DNA from: Candidatus Micrarchaeaceae archaeon
GTDB taxonomy: Archaea > Micrarchaeota > Micrarchaeia > Micrarchaeales > CABMGC01
NCBI GenBank assembly: GCA_038882355.1
Contig: JAVZOJ010000001.1
Location: forward strand, 1-29,827
Reading direction: 5' to 3'
Length of the DNA: 29,827 nucleotides
Part shown: positions 11,175 through 20,887 of the stretch, piece after piece
How positions within the stretch are numbered: position 1 is the first letter of the stretch
Layout: every line of letters begins with the position of its first letter
Position numbers and translations under genes: made by a program
The notes under the pieces: generated by a model
Told to the model about the DNA's origin: nothing
Seen by the model: only the letters and a program-made list of their open reading frames with translations
Databases searched by the model: none

Positions 11175-12074
11175 ATGAAAGCATTGCTGATGTCCTACGG
11201 CAGCCCTAAAGAAATAAGCAGAGAAGAGATTAGAAGATATTATACAAATGTAAGGCACGGGGCTGAGCCAAGCGAAGAGCTTCTGAATGATCTTTTCAGA
11301 AGGTACAGTGCAATAGGAGGCGCTACACCTCTTGAAAAGGTCACATATTCGATAGTGAGAAAGGTAAATGAAAGGCTCGGGAAAGAGATAGCAGTGCCTG
11401 CATTTAGGCACTCATTTCCATTTATAAAAGATGCAATAGAAAACATTGAAGAAAAGGATATGGTCTTTTCCTTTCCTCTTGTTCCGCATAAGAGCTCATT
11501 GACTCTAAGCCTTTACCACGAAGAGGTATATGAATATGCAAAAAAGGAAGGATTCAAGTCTGTCGCTTTCTCAAAGGGCTTTGCGGACAACAAAATATTC
11601 CAGGAAGCCTATGCAAAAGAGATAGCGAAGCTGAATGAAGACGCATTTACAATATTTACAGCACACAGCATACCGATAAACAGGCTAATGGTCAAAGAAG
11701 ACCCGTATTTTGAAGACCTGAAGAGATCGGCAGATGGAATAGCGCGCATCGCGAAGATCCACGATTATGCAATCGCGTTTCAAAGTGCAGGAAGAACTAA
11801 TGACATATGGCTTGGACCCACTGTGGAAGAAACAATCGACATGCTTATAGAAAAAGGAGTAAAAAGGTTCTTGATTGTACCCCAAGGGTTCCTTATAGAC
11901 AACCTTGAAACATTATATGACATCGATATTGAACTGAAAGAAAAATACAAAGGAAAGGCAGAAATAAAAAGGGCAAGCTGTGTAAATGATTCAGAAGACA
12001 TTATAAGAATGATTTGCGAGATTTTAGAGAGGCTGGAGAAGATCCAGGTCCAAGGAGCTGCTTCGCTCTTCTGA
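11175..12074 (+). CDS. cpfC: Ferrochelatase (coproporphyrin ferrochelatase CpfC/HemH)
   Basis: LLMSYGSP, RRYSAIGGATPL, FTAHSIP, FQSAGRTNDIWLGP, GFLIDNLETLYDID; GAGGTGA ribosome site upstream. Confidence 0.93.
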   Translation: MKALLMSYGSPKEISREEIRRYYTNVRHGAEPSEELLNDLFRRYSAIGGATPLEKVTYSIVRKVNERLGKEIAVPAFRHSFPFIKDAIENIEEKDMVFSFPLVPHKSSLTLSLYHEEVYEYAKKEGFKSVAFSKGFADNKIFQEAYAKEIAKLNEDAFTIFTAHSIPINRLMVKEDPYFEDLKRSADGIARIAKIHDYAIAFQSAGRTNDIWLGPTVEETIDMLIEKGVKRFLIVPQGFLIDNLETLYDIDIELKEKYKGKAEIKRASCVNDSEDIIRMICEILERLEKIQVQGAASLF

Positions 12075-13043
12075 ATACTCTTTCTTTTCCGCAAGCTTCA
12101 TCTCTACCCCTGTAATTAGGCTCATCACCCTTATCTCGTCTTTTAGCTCAGGCAGAAGCCTTGCTCCAAAGATTACATTTGCGTCTGGGGCCAGCTCAGA
12201 AGTCACGCCTTCGCCTATCTGCCTTGCTTCGTCGATTGTTAGCGCATATCCAGATGTTATATGGACAAGCGCTCCCTTTGCGCCCTTATAATCTACTGAA
12301 AGAAGCGGATGGCTCCTTGTAGATCTAATCGCTTGCTCGACCCTGTCGTTCCCTGCTCCGCTCCCTATGCTTATTACTGCTGTTCCGCTGTTTAGGAGCA
12401 CGCTTCTCAGGTCTGCATAATCGAGCTGTATGAGGCTAGGGAAGGATATTGTGTCTGCAATGCCCTTTACTGCATTTCCTATGATTGTATCTACTGCTTC
12501 AAACGCTTTTTCGAGAGGAAGGTTCGGAACATAGCTTAGCAACTTTTCATTTTCTATAACGATGGTTGAGTCTACCTCCTTTACCAGCTCCTTTAATCCT
12601 TCATCGGCAGTAGCCCTCTTATTCTTTTCCATTTGGAAAGGGTATGTAACGATCGCAACCACCAAAGCGCCAAGCTCTTTCGCTATCCTTCCTATTACTG
12701 GCGCTGCGCCTGTGCCTGTTCCTCCTCCCATTCCTGCGCACAGAAATACGAGGTTATATCCTTCAAGAGCAGCAATGACTTGGTCTTTGCTTATCTCTAC
12801 GCACCTTTTTGCTATTTCCGGGAATCCGCCTGCACCGAGGCCGTTTGTTATCTCTTTTCCGATCAGCAGCTTTTTGTGTGCTTTGGTAGTAGACCTAAGG
12901 TGAAGAAGGTCAGTATTTATTGCAATGGTCTCTGCGCTCTTTATGTTCGAGTTGTACAGCCTCGTTACTGCGTTGCACCCTTGGCCGCCTACTCCTACAA
13001 CGGCAATTCTTGCGCCTTGGAATGTGTCAAATTCGTCTTCCAT
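12024..13043 (-). CDS. ftsZ: Cell division GTPase FtsZ, FtsZ2-like paralog A (divergent)
   Basis: GVGGQGCNAV, INTD, GLGAGG, signature GMGGGTGTGAAPV; FtsZ2-type YVPNLP, PSLIQLDYAD and HPLLSVDYKGA. Confidence 0.95.
   Translation of the reverse strand: MEDEFDTFQGARIAVVGVGGQGCNAVTRLYNSNIKSAETIAINTDLLHLRSTTKAHKKLLIGKEITNGLGAGGFPEIAKRCVEISKDQVIAALEGYNLVFLCAGMGGGTGTGAAPVIGRIAKELGALVVAIVTYPFQMEKNKRATADEGLKELVKEVDSTIVIENEKLLSYVPNLPLEKAFEAVDTIIGNAVKGIADTISFPSLIQLDYADLRSVLLNSGTAVISIGSGAGNDRVEQAIRSTRSHPLLSVDYKGAKGALVHITSGYALTIDEARQIGEGVTSELAPDANVIFGARLLPELKDEIRVMSLITGVEMKLAEKKEYSEERSSSLDLDLLQPL
12697..12752. repeat. 56-bp perfect direct repeat, copy 1 (in ftsZ paralog A)
   Basis: ACTGGCGCTGCGCCTGTGCCTGTTCCTCCTCCCATTCCTGCGCACAGAAATACGAG, identical to 13719-13774 (checked base by base). 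Confidence 0.97.
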
Positions 13044-13054
13044 GCTCTTTCACC

Positions 13055-14098
13055 TTATATAAAGTCTAGGCTTGCATTATGGCTTTCACTCTTTTCTGAA
13101 ATCTTTCCTACAATGCTTCCTCCCTTCACTCCTGTAATTATTGCAACGATTTCCAGCTGGTCTTCCATCCCTGGCATTATTCTTGCTCCAAACTTTATCG
13201 TAGCAGATGGACTCATACGCTCAGAGATAAGCGATCCTGCCCTTATTGCATCGCCTAGGGTCAGGTCTCTTGAGCCGGTAATATGGAGCAAGCCTCCTTT
13301 CGCGTCTTCAAAGTCTACGTCCAAGAGCTTGTTCTTCATTACTCCCTCTACCGCAGCCTCAACCTTTCCGGCTCCCTTTCCTGTGCCTACTGATATGAAT
13401 CCAACTTCTCCTCTGCTCATAACCGCTTTTACATCTGCAAAGTCTATGCGTATAAGGCTTTCTTGCGTTATTGTCCACACAAGGCCGATTATCGCCTTTG
13501 CAAGAATGCTATCTGCCATCTCAAACGCAGTGTTCATCGGACTGTTTGCAAAGGCTTTTACTACTCTGTTGTTATCTAGGATAATTACGCTGTCGCAATA
13601 CTTTCTTAGCTCATTTATCCCCGCCTCTGCATTCACCTTTCTTTGCCTCTCCAAATCGAAAGGATATGTAACCATAGCCATTACAATAGCTCCTTCCTCC
13701 TTTGCAACTTGCGCAATGACTGGCGCTGCGCCTGTGCCTGTTCCTCCTCCCATTCCTGCGCACAGAAATACGAGATGGGAACCTTTGAGCACATCGCTTA
13801 TCAGCTTCCTGTCAGCCTCAGCTGCCTTTCTCCCTATCATTGGATCTCCTCCTGCGCCGAGACCCCTTGTTATTCCTTTTCCAATAAGGACTTTCTTTAT
13901 TCTGTCATCTATGATCCTAAAGTGTTGAACATCTGTATTCACAGCAACTAGCTCAGTTCCTTTTACTCCCATATTCAGGAGTCTATTCACTGTGTTGCTT
14001 CCTCCTCCACCAACGCCTACTGTCACAATCTTTATTTGTGGAATCTCGTCCACAGCTTCGCTATTAGAACCCAAAAATTCTGTTCCAACGTCGGACAT
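13055..14098 (-). CDS. ftsZ: Cell division GTPase FtsZ, FtsZ2-like paralog B
   Basis: GVGGGGSNTVNRL, VNTD, GLGAGGDP, GMGGGTGTGAAPV, PFDLERQR, LDNNR, ESLIRIDFAD. Start reassigned to ATG 14098 (GGCGAT upstream, TATA 32 nt upstream). An 11-nt spacer containing GGTGA links it to paralog A. Confidence 0.95.
   Translation of the reverse strand: MSDVGTEFLGSNSEAVDEIPQIKIVTVGVGGGGSNTVNRLLNMGVKGTELVAVNTDVQHFRIIDDRIKKVLIGKGITRGLGAGGDPMIGRKAAEADRKLISDVLKGSHLVFLCAGMGGGTGTGAAPVIAQVAKEEGAIVMAMVTYPFDLERQRKVNAEAGINELRKYCDSVIILDNNRVVKAFANSPMNTAFEMADSILAKAIIGLVWTITQESLIRIDFADVKAVMSRGEVGFISVGTGKGAGKVEAAVEGVMKNKLLDVDFEDAKGGLLHITGSRDLTLGDAIRAGSLISERMSPSATIKFGARIMPGMEDQLEIVAIITGVKGGSIVGKISEKSESHNASLDFI
13719..13774. 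repeat. 56-bp perfect direct repeat, copy 2 (in ftsZ paralog B)
   Basis: Identical to 12697-12752, 1022 bp apart, in the same codon register. Confidence 0.97.
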
Positions 14099-14130
14099 TC
14101 TGATCGCCCATTTACAATATACCAAGAAAT

Positions 14131-14146
14131 ATTTAAAAGCTTTTTC
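14131..14146 (-). promoter_or_regulatory. BRE-TATA promoter of the ftsZ-ftsZ operon
   Basis: Minus strand GAAAAAGC-TTTTAAAT, 32 nt upstream of ATG 14098. Confidence 0.65.
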
Positions 14147-14217
14147 TAAAGGAATACACATTTTACTTCCACAAGTTTTAAAGGAATTCCAAGCGCAAGT
14201 GAGGAATCACAGGCCGC

Positions 14218-14940
14218 TTATAAATTTTCAGGCGCATAAATATTTAATCCGCTAGTTGTTATTTCATATGGAGCTGTGGCCCTGCTGTGGTTAATGCCTC
14301 TCATCTTTATTACTTCCATCCCCAGCATTCGCTTGTCCTTTTCCCCCATCTGGTACATGGCAATAATTCCGTCGAATAGAAAATCGTCTTCCTTGAATGA
14401 GAGATCAGACCTTTCAGGAGAATGCATCTCCTTTGTCAATATTGAGGTGACTTTGAGTCTCTTCAAGTTTCCTATAAATACAAGCATATTCCTTCTGTAT
14501 ACAATCCTATTTTCCATAATCAGCTCAAATATGGACAAAGAATCTACGACGATTCTTTTTGCATTGTATGTCTCTATCAAACTCTCTATTTCTGCCACTA
14601 CTTTGCTGAATTCATAGCCAGTACGCGTTTCGTCAGTGTCTCTTATTATTCTAGAAGGGTCTGCGCCATCTATTATAAGAAGGTTTTTAGAAATAAGGTC
14701 ATCGATGTCTGTGAAGTCTTTGAAGGTGTTTTTTGCATTCTTTATTACGTCTTCAGTCGACTCTTCCAATGCGAAGAATATGCTGCATGCACCGGCTTTG
14801 GCAGACCTATATGCAAATTCAAAAGAAAGGAGAGTCTTTCCGGATCCGGGACTTCCTGTTACTATTACTTGATTACTTTCAGGTATTCCGCCACCCAAGA
14901 GTGTATCAAGGCCCTTTATATTCGTTGGTATGACCTGCAT
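14218..14940 (-). CDS. Single-domain KaiC-like / RAD55-family ATPase
   Basis: IPTNIKGLDTLLGGGIP, Walker A GSPGSGKT, FALEE, Walker B IVVDSLS, FDGII, IKMRG (Arg finger). Confidence 0.92.
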   Translation of the reverse strand: MQVIPTNIKGLDTLLGGGIPESNQVIVTGSPGSGKTLLSFEFAYRSAKAGACSIFFALEESTEDVIKNAKNTFKDFTDIDDLISKNLLIIDGADPSRIIRDTDETRTGYEFSKVVAEIESLIETYNAKRIVVDSLSIFELIMENRIVYRRNMLVFIGNLKRLKVTSILTKEMHSPERSDLSFKEDDFLFDGIIAMYQMGEKDKRMLGMEVIKMRGINHSRATAPYEITTSGLNIYAPENL

Positions 14941-15095: not shown

Positions 15096-15614
15096 ATGGT
15101 ATTTGGAAAAGGAAAGCTGTGCTTCGCAGGAAAAAGATTGCAGAGCGCGATGGAATACCTGACGACCTATGGATGGGCAATTCTTATTATTGCAATAGTT
15201 CTTGGAGTTCTTGTCTCTCTGGGCTTGTTCTCCCCTGGCAGGCTGGCTCCAAACCAATGCCTAGTAGAGGCAGGGTTTACGTGCCTGCAGGTTTACCTAA
15301 GCGCAAATGGGCTGCTAACTGTAAACATAGAGCAGACTACAAGCACACCAATTAATGTTACAGGAATAGAATGTGTGAACAACGTTACATTTGCTTATAT
15401 GCAGACGCCTTACAATCCGCCATCAAATCAAATAAACATAAATATAGGGGGAAATTATACGTTCTCCGTATTTTGCAAGAATAGCGCGAATGGGGCAGTC
15501 ATTTCAGGAAATCCTGGCTCTCTTTTTCAAGGCTACTTTATAATGAATTACACAGACATAACTACAGGATTTTCCCACGTGCTTTATGGGAAGATTTCTG
15601 TGAAGTACAGCTAA
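15096..15614 (+). CDS. Class III signal peptide (type IV pilin-like) protein
   Basis: GKRL-QSAMEYLTTYGWAILIIAIVLGVLVSLGLFSP: basic residues, Glu at +5 and a hydrophobic helix, followed by Cys pairs and N-glycosylation sequons. Start uncertain (15069, 15084 or 15096). Confidence 0.8.
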   Translation: MVFGKGKLCFAGKRLQSAMEYLTTYGWAILIIAIVLGVLVSLGLFSPGRLAPNQCLVEAGFTCLQVYLSANGLLTVNIEQTTSTPINVTGIECVNNVTFAYMQTPYNPPSNQININIGGNYTFSVFCKNSANGAVISGNPGSLFQGYFIMNYTDITTGFSHVLYGKISVKYS

Positions 15615-16366
15615 TCATAGGCCGCCTTCCTTAATTCGCCGATGGTGCCAAAGTCTATCGTTTCATGCTCTCCAAGGCAATATGCCCTGAGATTATCAAT
15701 ATTCGCCCTCTTTTTGAAGATTGGAGCCAAGTCATAGAGGTCGCCTCCCATCATATTCGACTCCACGCCCTCTGAATAATAGCTCATTGCTGGAAGTATA
15801 AGAAGGTCGTTTCCTTTTTTCGTCTTGCCATAAAGGAAGCACTTTACTTTTTCTTTCACTCCTACCGAGTTGTATATTGCTATGGCAGGATGCATATGGC
15901 CCATAACCATTGTTTTCTTCTCCTCGCTAGCATCTTCTTCCCCATGGAAAAAGAGGTAATCAAAGACCTTATACTCTTGCCGGTATATCTCAAACCCCAA
16001 AGGTCTAGAGAGCCTGTCTACAAAATTGTCATGGTTTCCCTTTACAAGTATGATTTCTTTTATACCTGTCTTGGCCTTCATAAATGAGATAAGCTCCCTA
16101 AACTCATTAAACTCTTCCACATGTACATTTGAAAACTCATTCTTTATATCCCCATCAATGATAATCTTGCTTGGCGAGAACTCATTGCAGGCTTCTGTGA
16201 TAATCCTTATTATATTCTTCAGATTCGCCTTAGGGAGAAACACGCCTTTGTCTGCCATAACCCCTTCATATCCGAGATGAAGATCTGAACAAACAATGGA
16301 GTCAAGCTCACTTATATATGCGACAGGGATTCCTTCCCCAAGCTCTATTTTTCTGTTTAGCCTCAA
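15611..16366 (-). CDS. Lhr-associated metallophosphoesterase (calcineurin-like, MPE)
   Basis: SDLHLGYE, IIDGDIK, KGNHD, FFHG and MGHMHP metal motifs. Start reassigned to TTG 16366, 4 nt after the lhr stop, with GGGGTGA upstream. Confidence 0.9.
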   Translation of the reverse strand: MRLNRKIELGEGIPVAYISELDSIVCSDLHLGYEGVMADKGVFLPKANLKNIIRIITEACNEFSPSKIIIDGDIKNEFSNVHVEEFNEFRELISFMKAKTGIKEIILVKGNHDNFVDRLSRPLGFEIYRQEYKVFDYLFFHGEEDASEEKKTMVMGHMHPAIAIYNSVGVKEKVKCFLYGKTKKGNDLLILPAMSYYSEGVESNMMGGDLYDLAPIFKKRANIDNLRAYCLGEHETIDFGTIGELRKAAYD

Positions 16367-16370
16367 CGGC

Positions 16371-19025
16371 TCACCCCATTTCTGCGAGCCTTTCAAGGAC
16401 CTGCTTGTGAAGCTCTTTAAGGTGCTTCCTCCTATCTTTCATCATAACAATATCTGCCTCTCCCAATGTTATAAGCGTGTGGGAAAACGGGGACGGCGAG
16501 GGGGTCTTCACTACCATGTACTTTATCTCCTTTCTTGCGATTGAATTTATAATCATCTTGGACTTTGGGAGGTCCATAATGTCTTCGAATATTTCTCTGT
16601 ATGTCTCCTTTAATATTGGAAAATTCTCGCTTATTTCCTCAACAGCCTTCAAGAGTTGCTGAGAGCTTAGCTGCTGCCTATTCACGCTTATCTTCTTTCC
16701 TTTATAATTTCTAAGAACCATAAACCCTCTTGTTGAGCAGTGCCTGAATTTCCTTTTCATGAGCTCCGTCCTCTTTATATTTTCTTTTAGAATCCTTTCT
16801 ATGTCTACTTCGTTGATCCTTTCCAATAGTTCTTCTATGTCTTTTGCGCTCACTTTTACATGCTTTCCCACAACGATGCAGAAGCCATTGTCATTTACCA
16901 TTATCCCAACATCCGTAGAGTAGATATCACCTATTGCTATGCCAAATATTCTCGACAAAGTGTCATTTATCCTTCTTCCAAACATTGAATGAAAGATCAG
17001 ATATTGGTTCTGAGATTTTAGGTCTTTTGTAAGCTCTACAACAAGAAGGTTGTGCTTAGGTATAAAGTCTGCAAAAAGGATTTGCTCTAAAAAGTAAGAG
17101 TAGATTGCCCTTTTTGCATTTTCATCGATAGGCATGGAGTCGAGCAATTCCCTTGCTTCGCTTCCTATCTTAATGCTGTTCTTTACAAGCATATGTGCGA
17201 GCATTCCCTTGCTTTTTATCTCTTTCCTTATAGCGTTCTCCAACTTTTCCCTAAATTTTCCGATCTCCAGCGCAAGCTCGTAAGTCAAAGGGAGCTGCTC
17301 TGAAAACCAAGGAGGTATGGTGGGCGTTGGGGAATCAGACTTTGATACATAGCACTTCATTCCTGAAGACCTTTCGAACTTATAGAGCTTCCCTCCAAGA
17401 ACGAAAATGTCTCCAGGTTTTAGCCTGGAGAGGAATTCTTCCTCTATGCTCCCTATCCACTTCCCTTCTGAAGAAAATACGTCTACGGCTACTTCATCAG
17501 GTATTGTGCCTATGTTCAGGTAGTATATGATCTTCCCATATCTGCCTCTTTTCCCAAATTCCATCGCGTTCTCATCATACCATATCTTGCCATAGACCCT
17601 TCTGCTCTCTAGCCCTACATACATTCCTGAAAGGTATTCAAGAAGTGAGAGGAAGTCTTTCTTGCTGAGGTCCTTATATGGATAAGCCCTCTTTACAACA
17701 TTAAAGGCTTCATCCACCTTCCATTTCTTGTTCAACGCCATGCCTACAATGTGCTGCGCAAGGACGTCAAGCGCGTTTTTAGGGATTGAGAAAGAGTCAA
17801 GATGCCTCTTCTTGGCCGCATCAAGCATTACAGAGCATTCTACAAGGTCATCTCTATTTAAGACGATAACTAGCCCTTTCGCAACGTCGTTGAACCTATG
17901 CCCGCTCCTTCCTATCCTTTGCAGTGCCCTTGTTACGCTCTTTGGGGAACCGAGCTGGATCACCTCGTCTATGCTTCCTATATCTACTCCAAGTTCAAGG
18001 CTTGTCGATGAAACGACGCATTTGAGCTTGCCTTTCTTGAGCATGTCTTCTACGCCAAGCCTTAGCTCTCTGGAAAGGGAGCCGTGATGCGCAGCAATCT
18101 CCTCTTCTTTATAATGCTTCTTCTTCATCAAGTTGAAAACGACCCTCTCTGTTCCGCTTCTTGTGTTTGTAAAAATAAGCACTGTCTTGCTCCTCCTAAT
18201 TTCTCTATCTATTATCGAATAAGTCTTTTCTTCTATCTCTGATTCTTCGGCGCTTATCATGTCTTCTACAGGACTTATTGTTTTAAACTCCATCTTTTTG
18301 TCCCAAGTAGCATCAACGATTACGCAGTCTCTCTCTTGCATATTTTTTCCGAGACCTACAAGGAACCTTGCAGCTTCTTCTATAGGGAAAAGCGTTGCGC
18401 CCAAGCCAATCCTTATGAAGTCCCTTCCTATCATCTCTGCCAGCCTTTCAAGAGAAAGGGAGAGGTGAACCCCCCTTTTGTTGTTTGCTAGCTCATGGAT
18501 TTCATCTATTACTACATACCTCACCTCACTCAAATGCTCGGAAAACTTTTCGCTATTCAGCATGATTGCAAGGCTTTCAGGAGTAGTGACCAATATATGA
18601 GGCGGATTCTTTAATTGCCTTTGCCTCTCGCTTTGGGTCGTATCTCCAGTCCTTATCCCAACCCTTATTCTGTTTGGGCCAAGAAGGGGCGCTATCTCCT
18701 CCAAAGGCTCTGAGAGATTCTTATATATGTCGTTGTTCAAGGCCCTAAGCGGAGAGATGTAAACACAGTATATTTTGTCTTTCAGCTCATTTTTCTCGAT
18801 GAGAGAGATGAGGCTGCTTATTATAGACATAAAAGCAGAGAAGGTTTTTCCGCTTCCTGTAGGGGCAGTTATGAGAACACTCTTTCCTTCTGCGATAAGC
18901 TTGAACGCAAACCTCTGCGGAGAGGTCAATGAAGGATATTTAGACTTGAACCATTCCCTTATTATTGGATGGAGAACTGACAAGGCTTCATCTTCTGAGA
19001 ATGGCTCCTTTTGATAACTAATCAA
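16371..19025 (-). CDS. lhr: Lhr-family SF2 helicase (Lhr-core)
   Basis: HPIIREWF, APTGSGKT, YISPLRALNND, TTPESL, DEIH, GLGAT, HHGSLS, TSSLELGVDIG, QRIGRSGH, LDVLAQH. Start TTG 19025 (GGTGA upstream) or ATG 19043; the track extension to 19157 overlaps lig. Confidence 0.95.
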   Translation of the reverse strand: MISYQKEPFSEDEALSVLHPIIREWFKSKYPSLTSPQRFAFKLIAEGKSVLITAPTGSGKTFSAFMSIISSLISLIEKNELKDKIYCVYISPLRALNNDIYKNLSEPLEEIAPLLGPNRIRVGIRTGDTTQSERQRQLKNPPHILVTTPESLAIMLNSEKFSEHLSEVRYVVIDEIHELANNKRGVHLSLSLERLAEMIGRDFIRIGLGATLFPIEEAARFLVGLGKNMQERDCVIVDATWDKKMEFKTISPVEDMISAEESEIEEKTYSIIDREIRRSKTVLIFTNTRSGTERVVFNLMKKKHYKEEEIAAHHGSLSRELRLGVEDMLKKGKLKCVVSSTSLELGVDIGSIDEVIQLGSPKSVTRALQRIGRSGHRFNDVAKGLVIVLNRDDLVECSVMLDAAKKRHLDSFSIPKNALDVLAQHIVGMALNKKWKVDEAFNVVKRAYPYKDLSKKDFLSLLEYLSGMYVGLESRRVYGKIWYDENAMEFGKRGRYGKIIYYLNIGTIPDEVAVDVFSSEGKWIGSIEEEFLSRLKPGDIFVLGGKLYKFERSSGMKCYVSKSDSPTPTIPPWFSEQLPLTYELALEIGKFREKLENAIRKEIKSKGMLAHMLVKNSIKIGSEARELLDSMPIDENAKRAIYSYFLEQILFADFIPKHNLLVVELTKDLKSQNQYLIFHSMFGRRINDTLSRIFGIAIGDIYSTDVGIMVNDNGFCIVVGKHVKVSAKDIEELLERINEVDIERILKENIKRTELMKRKFRHCSTRGFMVLRNYKGKKISVNRQQLSSQQLLKAVEEISENFPILKETYREIFEDIMDLPKSKMIINSIARKEIKYMVVKTPSPSPFSHTLITLGEADIVMMKDRRKHLKELHKQVLERLAEMG

Positions 19026-19123
19026 AAAATTCACCAAATACATAATATTGCGAAGAAGATTAATATTTGTAATATTGGCAGAGTTTGGAAAGAGATAAAT
19101 TCTTTGATTGTTACATAATAAAT

Positions 19124-20887
19124 ATGTTGTTTTCAGACATGGCAAATTACTACTCAAAGCTTGAATCTACTTCTTCAAGAATATCAATGGTAGAGGTGAT
19201 GAAAGATGCGTTTAAGCAGGCAGAGAAAGATGAGATTAGGAACTTAATATATCTCACCAAAGGCATGCTTGCGCCCCCTTTTGAAAACATAGAAATAGGA
19301 ATAGCTGAAAAGATGGCTGCAGAAGCGATATCGATAACTACTGGCGTTTCAAGGGAGGAGGTAGAAAAAGAGTTCAAAAAAGAGGGCGATTTGGGGGTTG
19401 TGGCTGAAAAGCTAATGGGAAAAAATAAAGTAAGACAAATAAAGGAAAGGAGGTTCAAGGTCAACGAAGTTTATGAAGCTTTGAAGAAGATAGCGATGAT
19501 AACAGGAGAAGGAAGCCAGCAGGCAAAGCTCAAGACTCTCTCTGAACTCCTCGCTTCGTGCTCGCCTAAGGAAGCAAAGTACATCATTAGGTTCGTGCTT
19601 GGCGAGCTAAGGCTTGGCGTTGGAGATGCAACGATACTTGAGGCGCTTGCAAGCGCATATACTGGTAACAGAAAGAACAAATCGCTGCTTGAAAACGCCT
19701 ACAACATTTGCAGCGATCTTGGAAAGGTTGGCGAAGAAGTCGCAAATAAAGGGATAGAGGGAATAAAAGGATTCAAGGTTTCCCTTTTCAATCCCATAAG
19801 GCCTGCGCTCGCAGAAAGGTTGCCTACAGCTGAAGAAATATTAAAAAGGATGGGGGGAATCGCTTCTGTCGAAAGCAAATATGATGGCCTCAGGGCGCAG
19901 GTGCATCTAGACAAGAAGCAAAAGAAAGTAGAGATATTTTCAAGAAATCTAGAAAGGCTTACGCCAATGCTGCCGGATATTGTCGAAGCTGCAATGAAAG
20001 AGATACGCGCAGATGAGGCAATCATCGATGGGGAAGCGATTGCATACAATGAAGTAGAGGACTTATTCTATCCGTTCCAAGAGACCATACAGAGAAAAAG
20101 GAAGCACGGAGTAGAGGAGAAGAGCAAAGAGCTGCCTCTCCACCTTTTTGCATTTGACATAATGTACCTTGATGGCAAAGACCTTTTATCCCTGCCGTAT
20201 TCTGAGAGAAGAAAGAAGCTCGAGGAGGTAGCAAAGGGCGATAGGATAAGGCCTACAGACAGGATTGTAGCAAAGTCCCCAAGAGAGCTCGAAAGGTACT
20301 TTGAGAATGTAGTAAGCAAAGGACTTGAAGGGATTGTTGCAAAAGACATGAATGCACCATATGTAGCAGGGGCAAGGAAATTCAGCTGGATAAAGTTGAA
20401 GAGAAGCTACAAAGGTGAGCTCTCGGACTCTTTGGATTTGGTGATTGTAGGCTATTATTTGGGAAGGGGAACAAGGGCAGAGTTTCAATTCGGAGGGCTT
20501 CTTTGCGCAATATATGACAAAAAGAAGGATATGTTCGAAACAATAACGAGGATAGGGACAGGGTTTACAGAAGAGATGATGAAAGAGCTGAAAGAAGAGC
20601 TTGACAAGATAAAAGTAAGCAAAAAGCCCGCAAGAGTGGATTCGCTCATAGAGCCAGACTTTTGGGTTGAACCTAGATATGTTGTAACTGTCAAGGCAGA
20701 TGAAATAACAAAGTCTCCAATGCACACAGCAGGGAGAGAAGGAGAGACAGGTTATGCTTTAAGGTTTCCAAGAATCGTGGGAAGCGGTATAAGAAGAGAC
20801 AAAAGTCCTGAGGACGCCACGACCCTGGAAGAAGTAATGAAGATGTATAAGGACCAGAAGAAGGTAAGAGTAGAGGAGCAGCAATAA
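19124..20887 (+). CDS. lig: ATP-dependent DNA ligase (archaeal Lig)
   Basis: KYDG adenylation motif, IIDGEA, AFDIMY, EGIVAK, WIKLK, LRFPR; N-terminal DNA-binding domain. Start reassigned to ATG 19124 (MLFSDMA). Confidence 0.97.
   Translation: MLFSDMANYYSKLESTSSRISMVEVMKDAFKQAEKDEIRNLIYLTKGMLAPPFENIEIGIAEKMAAEAISITTGVSREEVEKEFKKEGDLGVVAEKLMGKNKVRQIKERRFKVNEVYEALKKIAMITGEGSQQAKLKTLSELLASCSPKEAKYIIRFVLGELRLGVGDATILEALASAYTGNRKNKSLLENAYNICSDLGKVGEEVANKGIEGIKGFKVSLFNPIRPALAERLPTAEEILKRMGGIASVESKYDGLRAQVHLDKKQKKVEIFSRNLERLTPMLPDIVEAAMKEIRADEAIIDGEAIAYNEVEDLFYPFQETIQRKRKHGVEEKSKELPLHLFAFDIMYLDGKDLLSLPYSERRKKLEEVAKGDRIRPTDRIVAKSPRELERYFENVVSKGLEGIVAKDMNAPYVAGARKFSWIKLKRSYKGELSDSLDLVIVGYYLGRGTRAEFQFGGLLCAIYDKKKDMFETITRIGTGFTEEMMKELKEELDKIKVSKKPARVDSLIEPDFWVEPRYVVTVKADEITKSPMHTAGREGETGYALRFPRIVGSGIRRDKSPEDATTLEEVMKMYKDQKKVRVEEQQ

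Follow-up and report, generated by a model that had tools for sequence, protein, structure and literature searches.

Micro-conversion between diverged tandem paralogs is familiar from eukaryotes, where the CYP21A2/CYP21A1P, GBA1/GBAP1, globin and opsin genes provide examples. Conversion between GBA1 and GBAP1 has been documented as a case of this kind (PMC12075325). In prokaryotes, a phylogenomic survey identified recurrent conversion of long standing in 26 genes, seven of which are archaeal and all of these from methanogens; neither ftsZ nor DPANN archaea are among them (PMC6053082). In Sulfolobus acidocaldarius, conversion patches are short, discontinuous and unidirectional, separate markers lying 20–30 nucleotides (nt) apart, and form without MutS/MutL (PMC3367456). 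A literature search returned no report of gene conversion between ftsZ paralogs. Here we describe a 56-nt tract of perfect identity shared by two tandem and anciently duplicated ftsZ paralogs, designated A and B, in a 29,827-nt stretch of archaeal DNA (contig JAVZOJ010000001.1 of assembly GCA_038882355.1, positions 1 to 29,827; hereafter the window), and we consider it very probable that the tract reflects recurrent short-tract interlocus (ectopic) gene conversion between the two genes. The source organism is a tiny symbiotic archaeon of the Micrarchaeota, a DPANN lineage, and its metagenome-assembled genome (MAG) comprises 549,520 bp in 57 contigs and is 88.7% complete.

Both genes belong to the FtsZ family. 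Each encodes a Pfam Tubulin and an FtsZ_C domain above the curated cut-offs (E-values of 1.6e-42 and 4.8e-29 for A, and 5.5e-42 and 5.2e-22 for B), each exceeds the 295-bit cut-off of the NCBIfam FtsZ equivalog TIGR00065 (381 bits for A, 343 bits for B), and each carries the sequence GMGGGTGTG, which contains the tubulin signature GGGTG[ST]G. Paralog A also matches the Methanocaldococcus jannaschii FtsZ (MjFtsZ; 1W5E/1FSZ) with an E-value of 5e-81. The two paralogs share 43% amino acid identity, and 54% DNA identity over the codon-aligned genes. Within this diverged background, direct comparison bears out the preliminary description of the locus, which had reported perfect identity over 56 bp, spanning 18 codons and all 17 of the degenerate ones: the two tracts are identical at 56 of 56 positions (Table 1), with a mismatch directly at both ends, and shared residues just downstream are specified by different codons (GTA/GTC, ATA/ATT, GCG/GCA and AAA/AAG among them), as had also been noted. 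The second-longest identical run between A and B is 11 nt. The two tracts are the only occurrences of the 56-mer, both in the window and in the whole 549-kb genome, where no third copy or antisense partner was found. The encoded peptide, LVFLCAGMGGGTGTGAAP, aligns through the alignment of A to MjFtsZ residues 124–141, which we take to be strand S4, the GTP-phosphate-binding T4 tubulin-signature loop, and the start of helix H4.

The identity is real and lies far beyond chance expectation. Outside the tract, 53 of the 123 identical degenerate residues share a codon between A and B, and 45 are expected from the codon usage of the genome; matching is thus at the random expectation, and synonymous sites outside the tract are saturated. 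The probability of finding all 17 degenerate codons the same within the tract is 4e-9 when calculated from whole-genome codon usage, and 6e-7 with the empirical rate seen outside the tract. None of 20,000 simulations in which the amino acids were kept and synonymous codons redrawn reached 56 nt, and no simulated run was longer than 43 nt.

To ask about the age of the two genes, we compared complete A/B pairs from 27 Micrarchaeota genomes and 39 non-tandem paralogs, the latter comprising type C (with the sequence LTAGMGGG) and type D (with TCGLGGG). Of 40 relatives, 37 have B and A in tandem, and these are distributed over three families of the order; in three more the contig ends inside the locus, and one genome (G036) has a different paralog only. 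In a maximum-likelihood tree calculated without the motif columns, the 27 A sequences form one clade and the 27 B sequences another (with Shimodaira–Hasegawa-like approximate likelihood ratio support, SH-aLRT, of 99 and 100, respectively), and the duplication therefore predates the whole sample. This bears on one alternative, namely that the tract is all that has stayed free of mutation in two recently duplicated copies. The genes are indeed tandem, co-oriented and of similar length, as young copies would be, but the explanation is essentially untenable and we rejected it on two grounds: protein identity of 43% together with random-level synonymous matching outside the tract, and the sharing of the A and B clades across three families.

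Several features of this sample are of separate interest. Relatives usually have four ftsZ paralogs, namely the tandem A and B and the unlinked C and D types. G036, which is about 93% complete, has a single ftsZ match (D-type, 41% identity). The tandem pair is found in its congeners G026 and G040, and the absence of the pair in G036 may reflect an assembly gap or a real loss. G014 has two tandem B-A pairs on different contigs (Table 1), with A copies that are 65% and 60% identical to the query, and this could be either a true operon duplication or a mixed bin.

The identity at the T4 loop is not peculiar to the window. Across the 27 genomes, the fraction of motif codons that are the same in A and B is 0.602 when both genes are from one genome, and 0.383 when they are from different genomes (z = 10.4; 0 of 2000 permutations). 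The corresponding values for the rest of the gene are 0.465 and 0.416, an excess that is an ordinary genome-level effect of codon usage. When examined column by column, the within-genome excess peaks only at LVF.CAGMGGGTG, with values of 0.6–0.8 within genomes versus 0.3–0.5 between them. Non-tandem pairs from the same genomes (A-C, A-D, B-C, B-D and C-D) show motif concordances of 0.36–0.46. The lengths of the identical runs follow the same pattern. When A and B are from one genome, the median length of the longest run over the motif is 21 nt, with 15 of the 27 pairs reaching at least 20 nt, versus a median of 11 nt for A paired with B of another genome, where 5.6% reach 20 nt; between A orthologs the median is also 11 nt, and the maximum 29 nt. 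Paralogs within a genome are thus closer to each other at the motif than orthologs are, which is the signature that defines concerted evolution. A further comparison, asking how often the best match to A over the full 18 codons is the B gene of the same genome, gave 3 of 27 genomes versus 0 of 27 for three control segments, although this is a weak test, as the segment includes residues specific to each paralog that keep A and B apart; the comparisons of run length and of synonymous codons are more informative.

We also simulated each genome individually; for the relatives, codon usage was derived from ftsZ sequences alone. In 14 of the 27 genomes the longest run in the gene is significant (P<0.01), and it is almost always positioned at the GMGGGTGTG loop. 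The haplotypes shared by A and B in these 14 genomes are mostly 2–9 nt apart from one another, and most are therefore separate events rather than one inherited event. Among the relatives, the run at this site varies from 7 to 46 nt (often 8–25 nt) and differs in sequence, and both copies carry the codons particular to their genome: GGC-ATG-GGC-GGC-GGC in G010, GGA-ATG-GGT-GGC-GGC in G017, and GGA-ATG-GGA-GGA-GGA-ACA-GGC-ACA-GGC in the genome of the window.

Some relatives depart from this pattern in ways that are informative about the process. In G013 the shared tract is 70 nt with one mismatch (23 + 46 nt), extending from GMGGGTG through GASPVVAQIAKEQGA and into helix H4/H5; its A copy has the B-type residues Ser and Gln, which makes this a B to A conversion longer than that in the window. 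In G009 the longest A/B run (31 nt) is not at the T4 loop and instead lies at MPSLINIDFAD in the T7 region, pointing to another conserved motif as a further possible site of conversion. Runs of at least 20 nt between A and C are seen in 3 of 20 genomes versus 0.8% of comparisons between genomes; in G017, A, B and the unlinked C (L015, L038, L039) all share the 23-nt string ATG GGT GGC GGC ACA GGA ACA GG, and the C paralogs of G002, G011 and G017 carry a Leu-Cys that is otherwise typical of B. These observations hint at occasional conversion between unlinked ftsZ copies, with conversion being much commoner in the tandem pair. In family f3 (L026, L028, L029, L033, L034), A has GGGTGGG rather than the canonical GGGTGTG, and the A/B motif runs are shorter. 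To judge from these sequences, the weaker signal in f3 would fit a dependence on motif identity. One B gene of this family (L029) has GEGGGTGTG in place of GMGGG.

The residues immediately preceding AGMGGG point to the direction of transfer. They are Leu-Cys in the B orthologs of 25 of the 27 genomes, whereas most A orthologs have Val, Ile or Met at the first position and Ala, Cys or Gly at the second. G010, G020, G003 and G017, the four nearest relatives, have Val-Ala or Ile-Ala in A, and the A gene in the window has Leu-Cys. At the nucleotide level, the 54 nt of the shared codons agree with B at 48, 46 and 46 positions in G020, G010 and G003, respectively, and with the A orthologs of these relatives at only 37–40. 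Since the tract is nearest to the B orthologs, and A has acquired the Leu-Cys of B, B was the donor and A the recipient, in an event that changed two amino acids of A. Neither copy has since diverged at any of the roughly 17 synonymous sites, so that in terms of synonymous divergence the event is recent; we roughly estimate its age at well below about 0.1 substitutions per site. The preliminary description had proposed a recent gene conversion of the nucleotide-binding loop, and this proposal is strongly supported and can now be extended to include a B to A direction and recurrence across the order. The same codons were not found in unrelated ftsZ genes of the lineage, and the best match of any other ftsZ gene to the 54-nt motif is 48 of 54 positions.

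General recombination or template switching that starts from micro-homology is the most likely process, and a mechanism can be outlined. The invariant GMGGGTGTG would impose nearly identical DNA on two genes that lie 1 kb apart on the same strand, and this micro-homology could let the copies pair, either in RadA-dependent repair or through a replication template switch. The genome encodes RadA (Rad51 family, 5.9e-87) and the Holliday-junction resolvase Hjc (1.7e-24). A short heteroduplex or synthesis patch would then be resolved toward the donor, as a non-crossover. Tracts reaching into the diverged flanks might fail to pair, or would alter paralog-specific residues and be purged by purifying selection, such that the surviving patches would be those confined to the shared motif. 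Each event would renew the perfect identity and so favor the next. Such self-renewing identity would lead to the same spot being homogenized repeatedly and independently in many genera of the order.

There are several considerations that weigh against conversion. The flanks are only about 54% identical, which makes pairing mechanistically demanding. The nearest homolog among 5.8e9 proteins has 68% amino acid identity, too distant for the event to be observed directly, dated or detected as a polymorphism; the protein encoded in the window is itself a singleton, from one contig, and a scan of genome contigs for closer strains gave no more than distant Micrarchaeota and other archaea. Because related genomes are counted as independent in the pooled statistics, these exaggerate significance; the per-genome simulations and the distinct haplotypes are unaffected. 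The assembly is a fragmented MAG, a point that we consider below together with the possibility of artefact. Finally, there is some general codon preference at the motif, as between-genome codon matching is 0.38–0.48 per column there, compared with about 0.3 at other Gly columns.

This last observation raises the possibility that A and B have converged independently through selection at the codon level, with no exchange of DNA: a genome-specific preference for particular Gly, Thr and Ala codons (for example by tRNA supply, avoidance of G-runs, or an mRNA feature) would lead both genes to the same choices at a highly expressed, glycine-rich motif. Consistent with this, codons at the motif columns match between genomes somewhat more often (0.40–0.48) than those at other conserved Gly columns (about 0.25–0.35), G+C-rich genomes such as that of G010 use GGC in all four paralogs, and non-tandem pairs too have a small within-genome excess at the motif. 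Nonetheless, convergence is already largely refuted, and we consider it very improbable. The tract contains four GGA and two GGC codons, both GCA and GCG, and both CTC and CTG, a mixture that no single preference predicts, and elsewhere in A and B only 6 of 20 shared Gly codons are the same. Other conserved Gly motifs (the N-terminal GxGxxG, and GLGAGG) show no within-genome excess in the 27 genomes. In the C and D paralogs of the relatives, and likewise in the third ftsZ found alongside A and B, the same peptide motif is encoded by other codons, and the A/B identity extends over Leu, Val, Phe, Cys and Pro codons as well and ends sharply.

A different concern is that two copies that actually differ were homogenized during error-correction, graph simplification or polishing, and in a fragmented assembly such an artefact is possible for this one genome. 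We think it very improbable. Both genes are full-length and orthologous throughout to the A and B genes of the relatives, indicating that flanks have not been swapped, and a repeat of 56 nt falls below the k-mer sizes with which assemblies usually finish, and below usual read lengths, so that its collapse is not needed. Moreover, 13 other independent assemblies have the same effect at the same site, with runs of 21–46 nt and the 70-nt tract of G013, and the patch in the window carries Leu-Cys changes that are coherent with a B to A transfer.

The preliminary description also inferred a recombination cassette, in which a crossover between the repeats excises a 1022-bp circle and leaves a chimeric B/A ftsZ, a potential switch between two-gene and one-gene states. 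As a functional cassette, the repeats would be kept for this purpose, and the switch of the division machinery would be reversible or heritable. The geometry on which this was based is correct: the repeats are direct, in register and 1022 nt apart, and the hypothetical deletion would leave an open, in-frame 371-amino acid reading frame; the general recombination genes noted above are also present. The switch itself is not supported, and we regard it as very improbable. The tandem pair is retained in 37 of 37 assessable relatives, with no chimera among them, although no search directed at chimeras was made. A and B are conserved, monophyletic clades under long-term maintenance, the repeat is conserved in neither length nor sequence among the relatives, and an excised circle without an origin could not re-insert reliably. 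Tyrosine and serine recombinases (PF00589 and PF00239) gave no match in the 549-kb assembly, which at 88.7% completeness leaves their absence unproven. Rare spontaneous deletions at the repeat are to be expected, and would probably be deleterious. A variant of the conversion interpretation should also be considered, in which the T4-loop patch is a selected, self-sustaining hot spot that keeps the loops of the two co-expressed paralogs strictly identical (for example for co-polymerization in mixed filaments), or in which occasional repeat crossovers give viable single-gene B/A chimeras in natural populations. We give this little weight, and conversion without such a role is the interpretation that we favor.

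The two genes are positioned closely together, and the spacer between them, as read in the sequence, suggests that A and B are co-transcribed. The ATG at position 14098, rather than the start of the longest open reading frame (ORF), may be the true start of B, giving a protein of 347 amino acids. Coordinates of these and other features are listed in Table 1. Immediately upstream of the pair is a gene for a KaiC-like ATPase, with genes for an SbcD-related phosphoesterase and a helicase-like protein further upstream. A long open frame running antisense through both ftsZ genes is probably a mechanical by-product of ftsZ codon composition. The assembly also contains a third ftsZ, of D-type and with an unusual loop; it holds only the A, B and D types, with the C type either missing or unassembled in this 88.7% complete genome.

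Table 1. Locations of the ftsZ tracts, genes and neighboring features. Positions are those of the window unless another sequence is named.
Feature	Location	Strand	Description
Tract in ftsZ A (recipient)	12697-12752	-	56 nt; codons 98-115 (LVFLCAGMGGGTGTGAAP) plus 2 nt of the next Val codon
Tract in ftsZ B (donor)	13719-13774	-	56 nt; same codons and same phase as 12697-12752
ftsZ paralog A	12024-13043	-	339 amino acids; downstream member of the tandem pair; conversion recipient
ftsZ paralog B	13055-14161	-	Longest ORF 368 amino acids; upstream member; conversion donor
B-A spacer	13044-13054	-	11 nt between the B TAA stop and the A ATG; GGTGA six bases before the ATG
Antisense open frame	12633-13928	+	431 amino acids; passes through both ftsZ genes
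KaiC-like ATPase	14218-14940	-	Single-domain; Pfam KaiC 2.6e-50; 56 nt upstream of the ftsZ pair, same orientation
SbcD-related phosphoesterase	15611-16396	-	TIGR00024
Helicase-like ORF	16371-19157	-	928 amino acids
Third ftsZ of the assembly	C4:7441-8385 (L001:979-2043)	-	D-type; unusual VTYGLGGGTGTGGGH loop
G013 A/B tract	L017:2103-2172 and L017:3125-3194		70 nt, one mismatch
G009 A/B run	L025:1858-1888 and L025:2891-2921		31 nt at MPSLINIDFAD
G014 tandem B-A pairs	C20:9953-11971 and C32:1852-3832		Two pairs on separate contigs

These findings provide evidence, at the level of sequence, that homologous recombination is active in the very small genomes of DPANN archaea such as the Micrarchaeota, and that it can exploit homology that a protein motif alone imposes on two genes otherwise saturated with substitutions. 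Micro-conversion of this type would be missed by screens for concerted evolution that consider whole genes. It can nevertheless move amino acid states between functionally distinct paralogs, as with the Leu-Cys in A of the window and the longer B-type stretch in G013. There are also practical consequences, in that archaeal ftsZ trees, estimates of synonymous divergence (dS), and primers or probes that cover the T4 loop will be distorted, and the identical repeat is a potential site of both mis-assembly and spontaneous deletion.

Comparison with known systems shows which aspects of the locus are familiar and which are not. Archaea with a dual FtsZ1/FtsZ2 system, as in Haloferax volcanii (and with the M. 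jannaschii FtsZ as a further reference), likewise have multiple, functionally distinct paralogs with a GGGTGTG T4 loop; the Micrarchaeota differ in having up to four paralogs, two of which are in a conserved tandem operon. The genes with recurrent concerted evolution, including tufA/tufB and the methanogen mtrA, mtmB/C, mtbB/C, glnB and histone genes, similarly have paralogs that are closer within a genome than orthologs are; the events have happened repeatedly over long evolutionary times and have been ascribed to gene conversion (PMC6053082), and mtrA is a tandem pair like ftsZ A/B (PMC6053082). In those cases, however, homogenization covers all or much of the gene and the paralogs look young in trees (PMC6053082), whereas ftsZ A and B remain at 43% identity and are homogenized over no more than an 18-codon motif. 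The eukaryotic pairs such as CYP21A2/CYP21A1P and GBA1/GBAP1 are likewise direct-repeat neighbors that swap short patches to give mosaic identity, but they are more than 90% identical overall, whereas ftsZ A/B are saturated at synonymous sites and their homology is imposed only by a protein motif. The short-patch conversion of S. acidocaldarius is on the same scale as the 56-nt tract (PMC3367456), although it was observed experimentally in a crenarchaeon with an exogenous, near-identical donor, rather than deduced for a DPANN archaeon in which the donor is a chromosomal paralog of 54% identity; it follows from those patches that archaeal recombination can work at this scale. The process at the ftsZ locus is thus the known one of gene conversion and not a new system, and what differs is its 18-codon scale, its action between saturated paralogs, and its recurrence at the same motif across a DPANN order.

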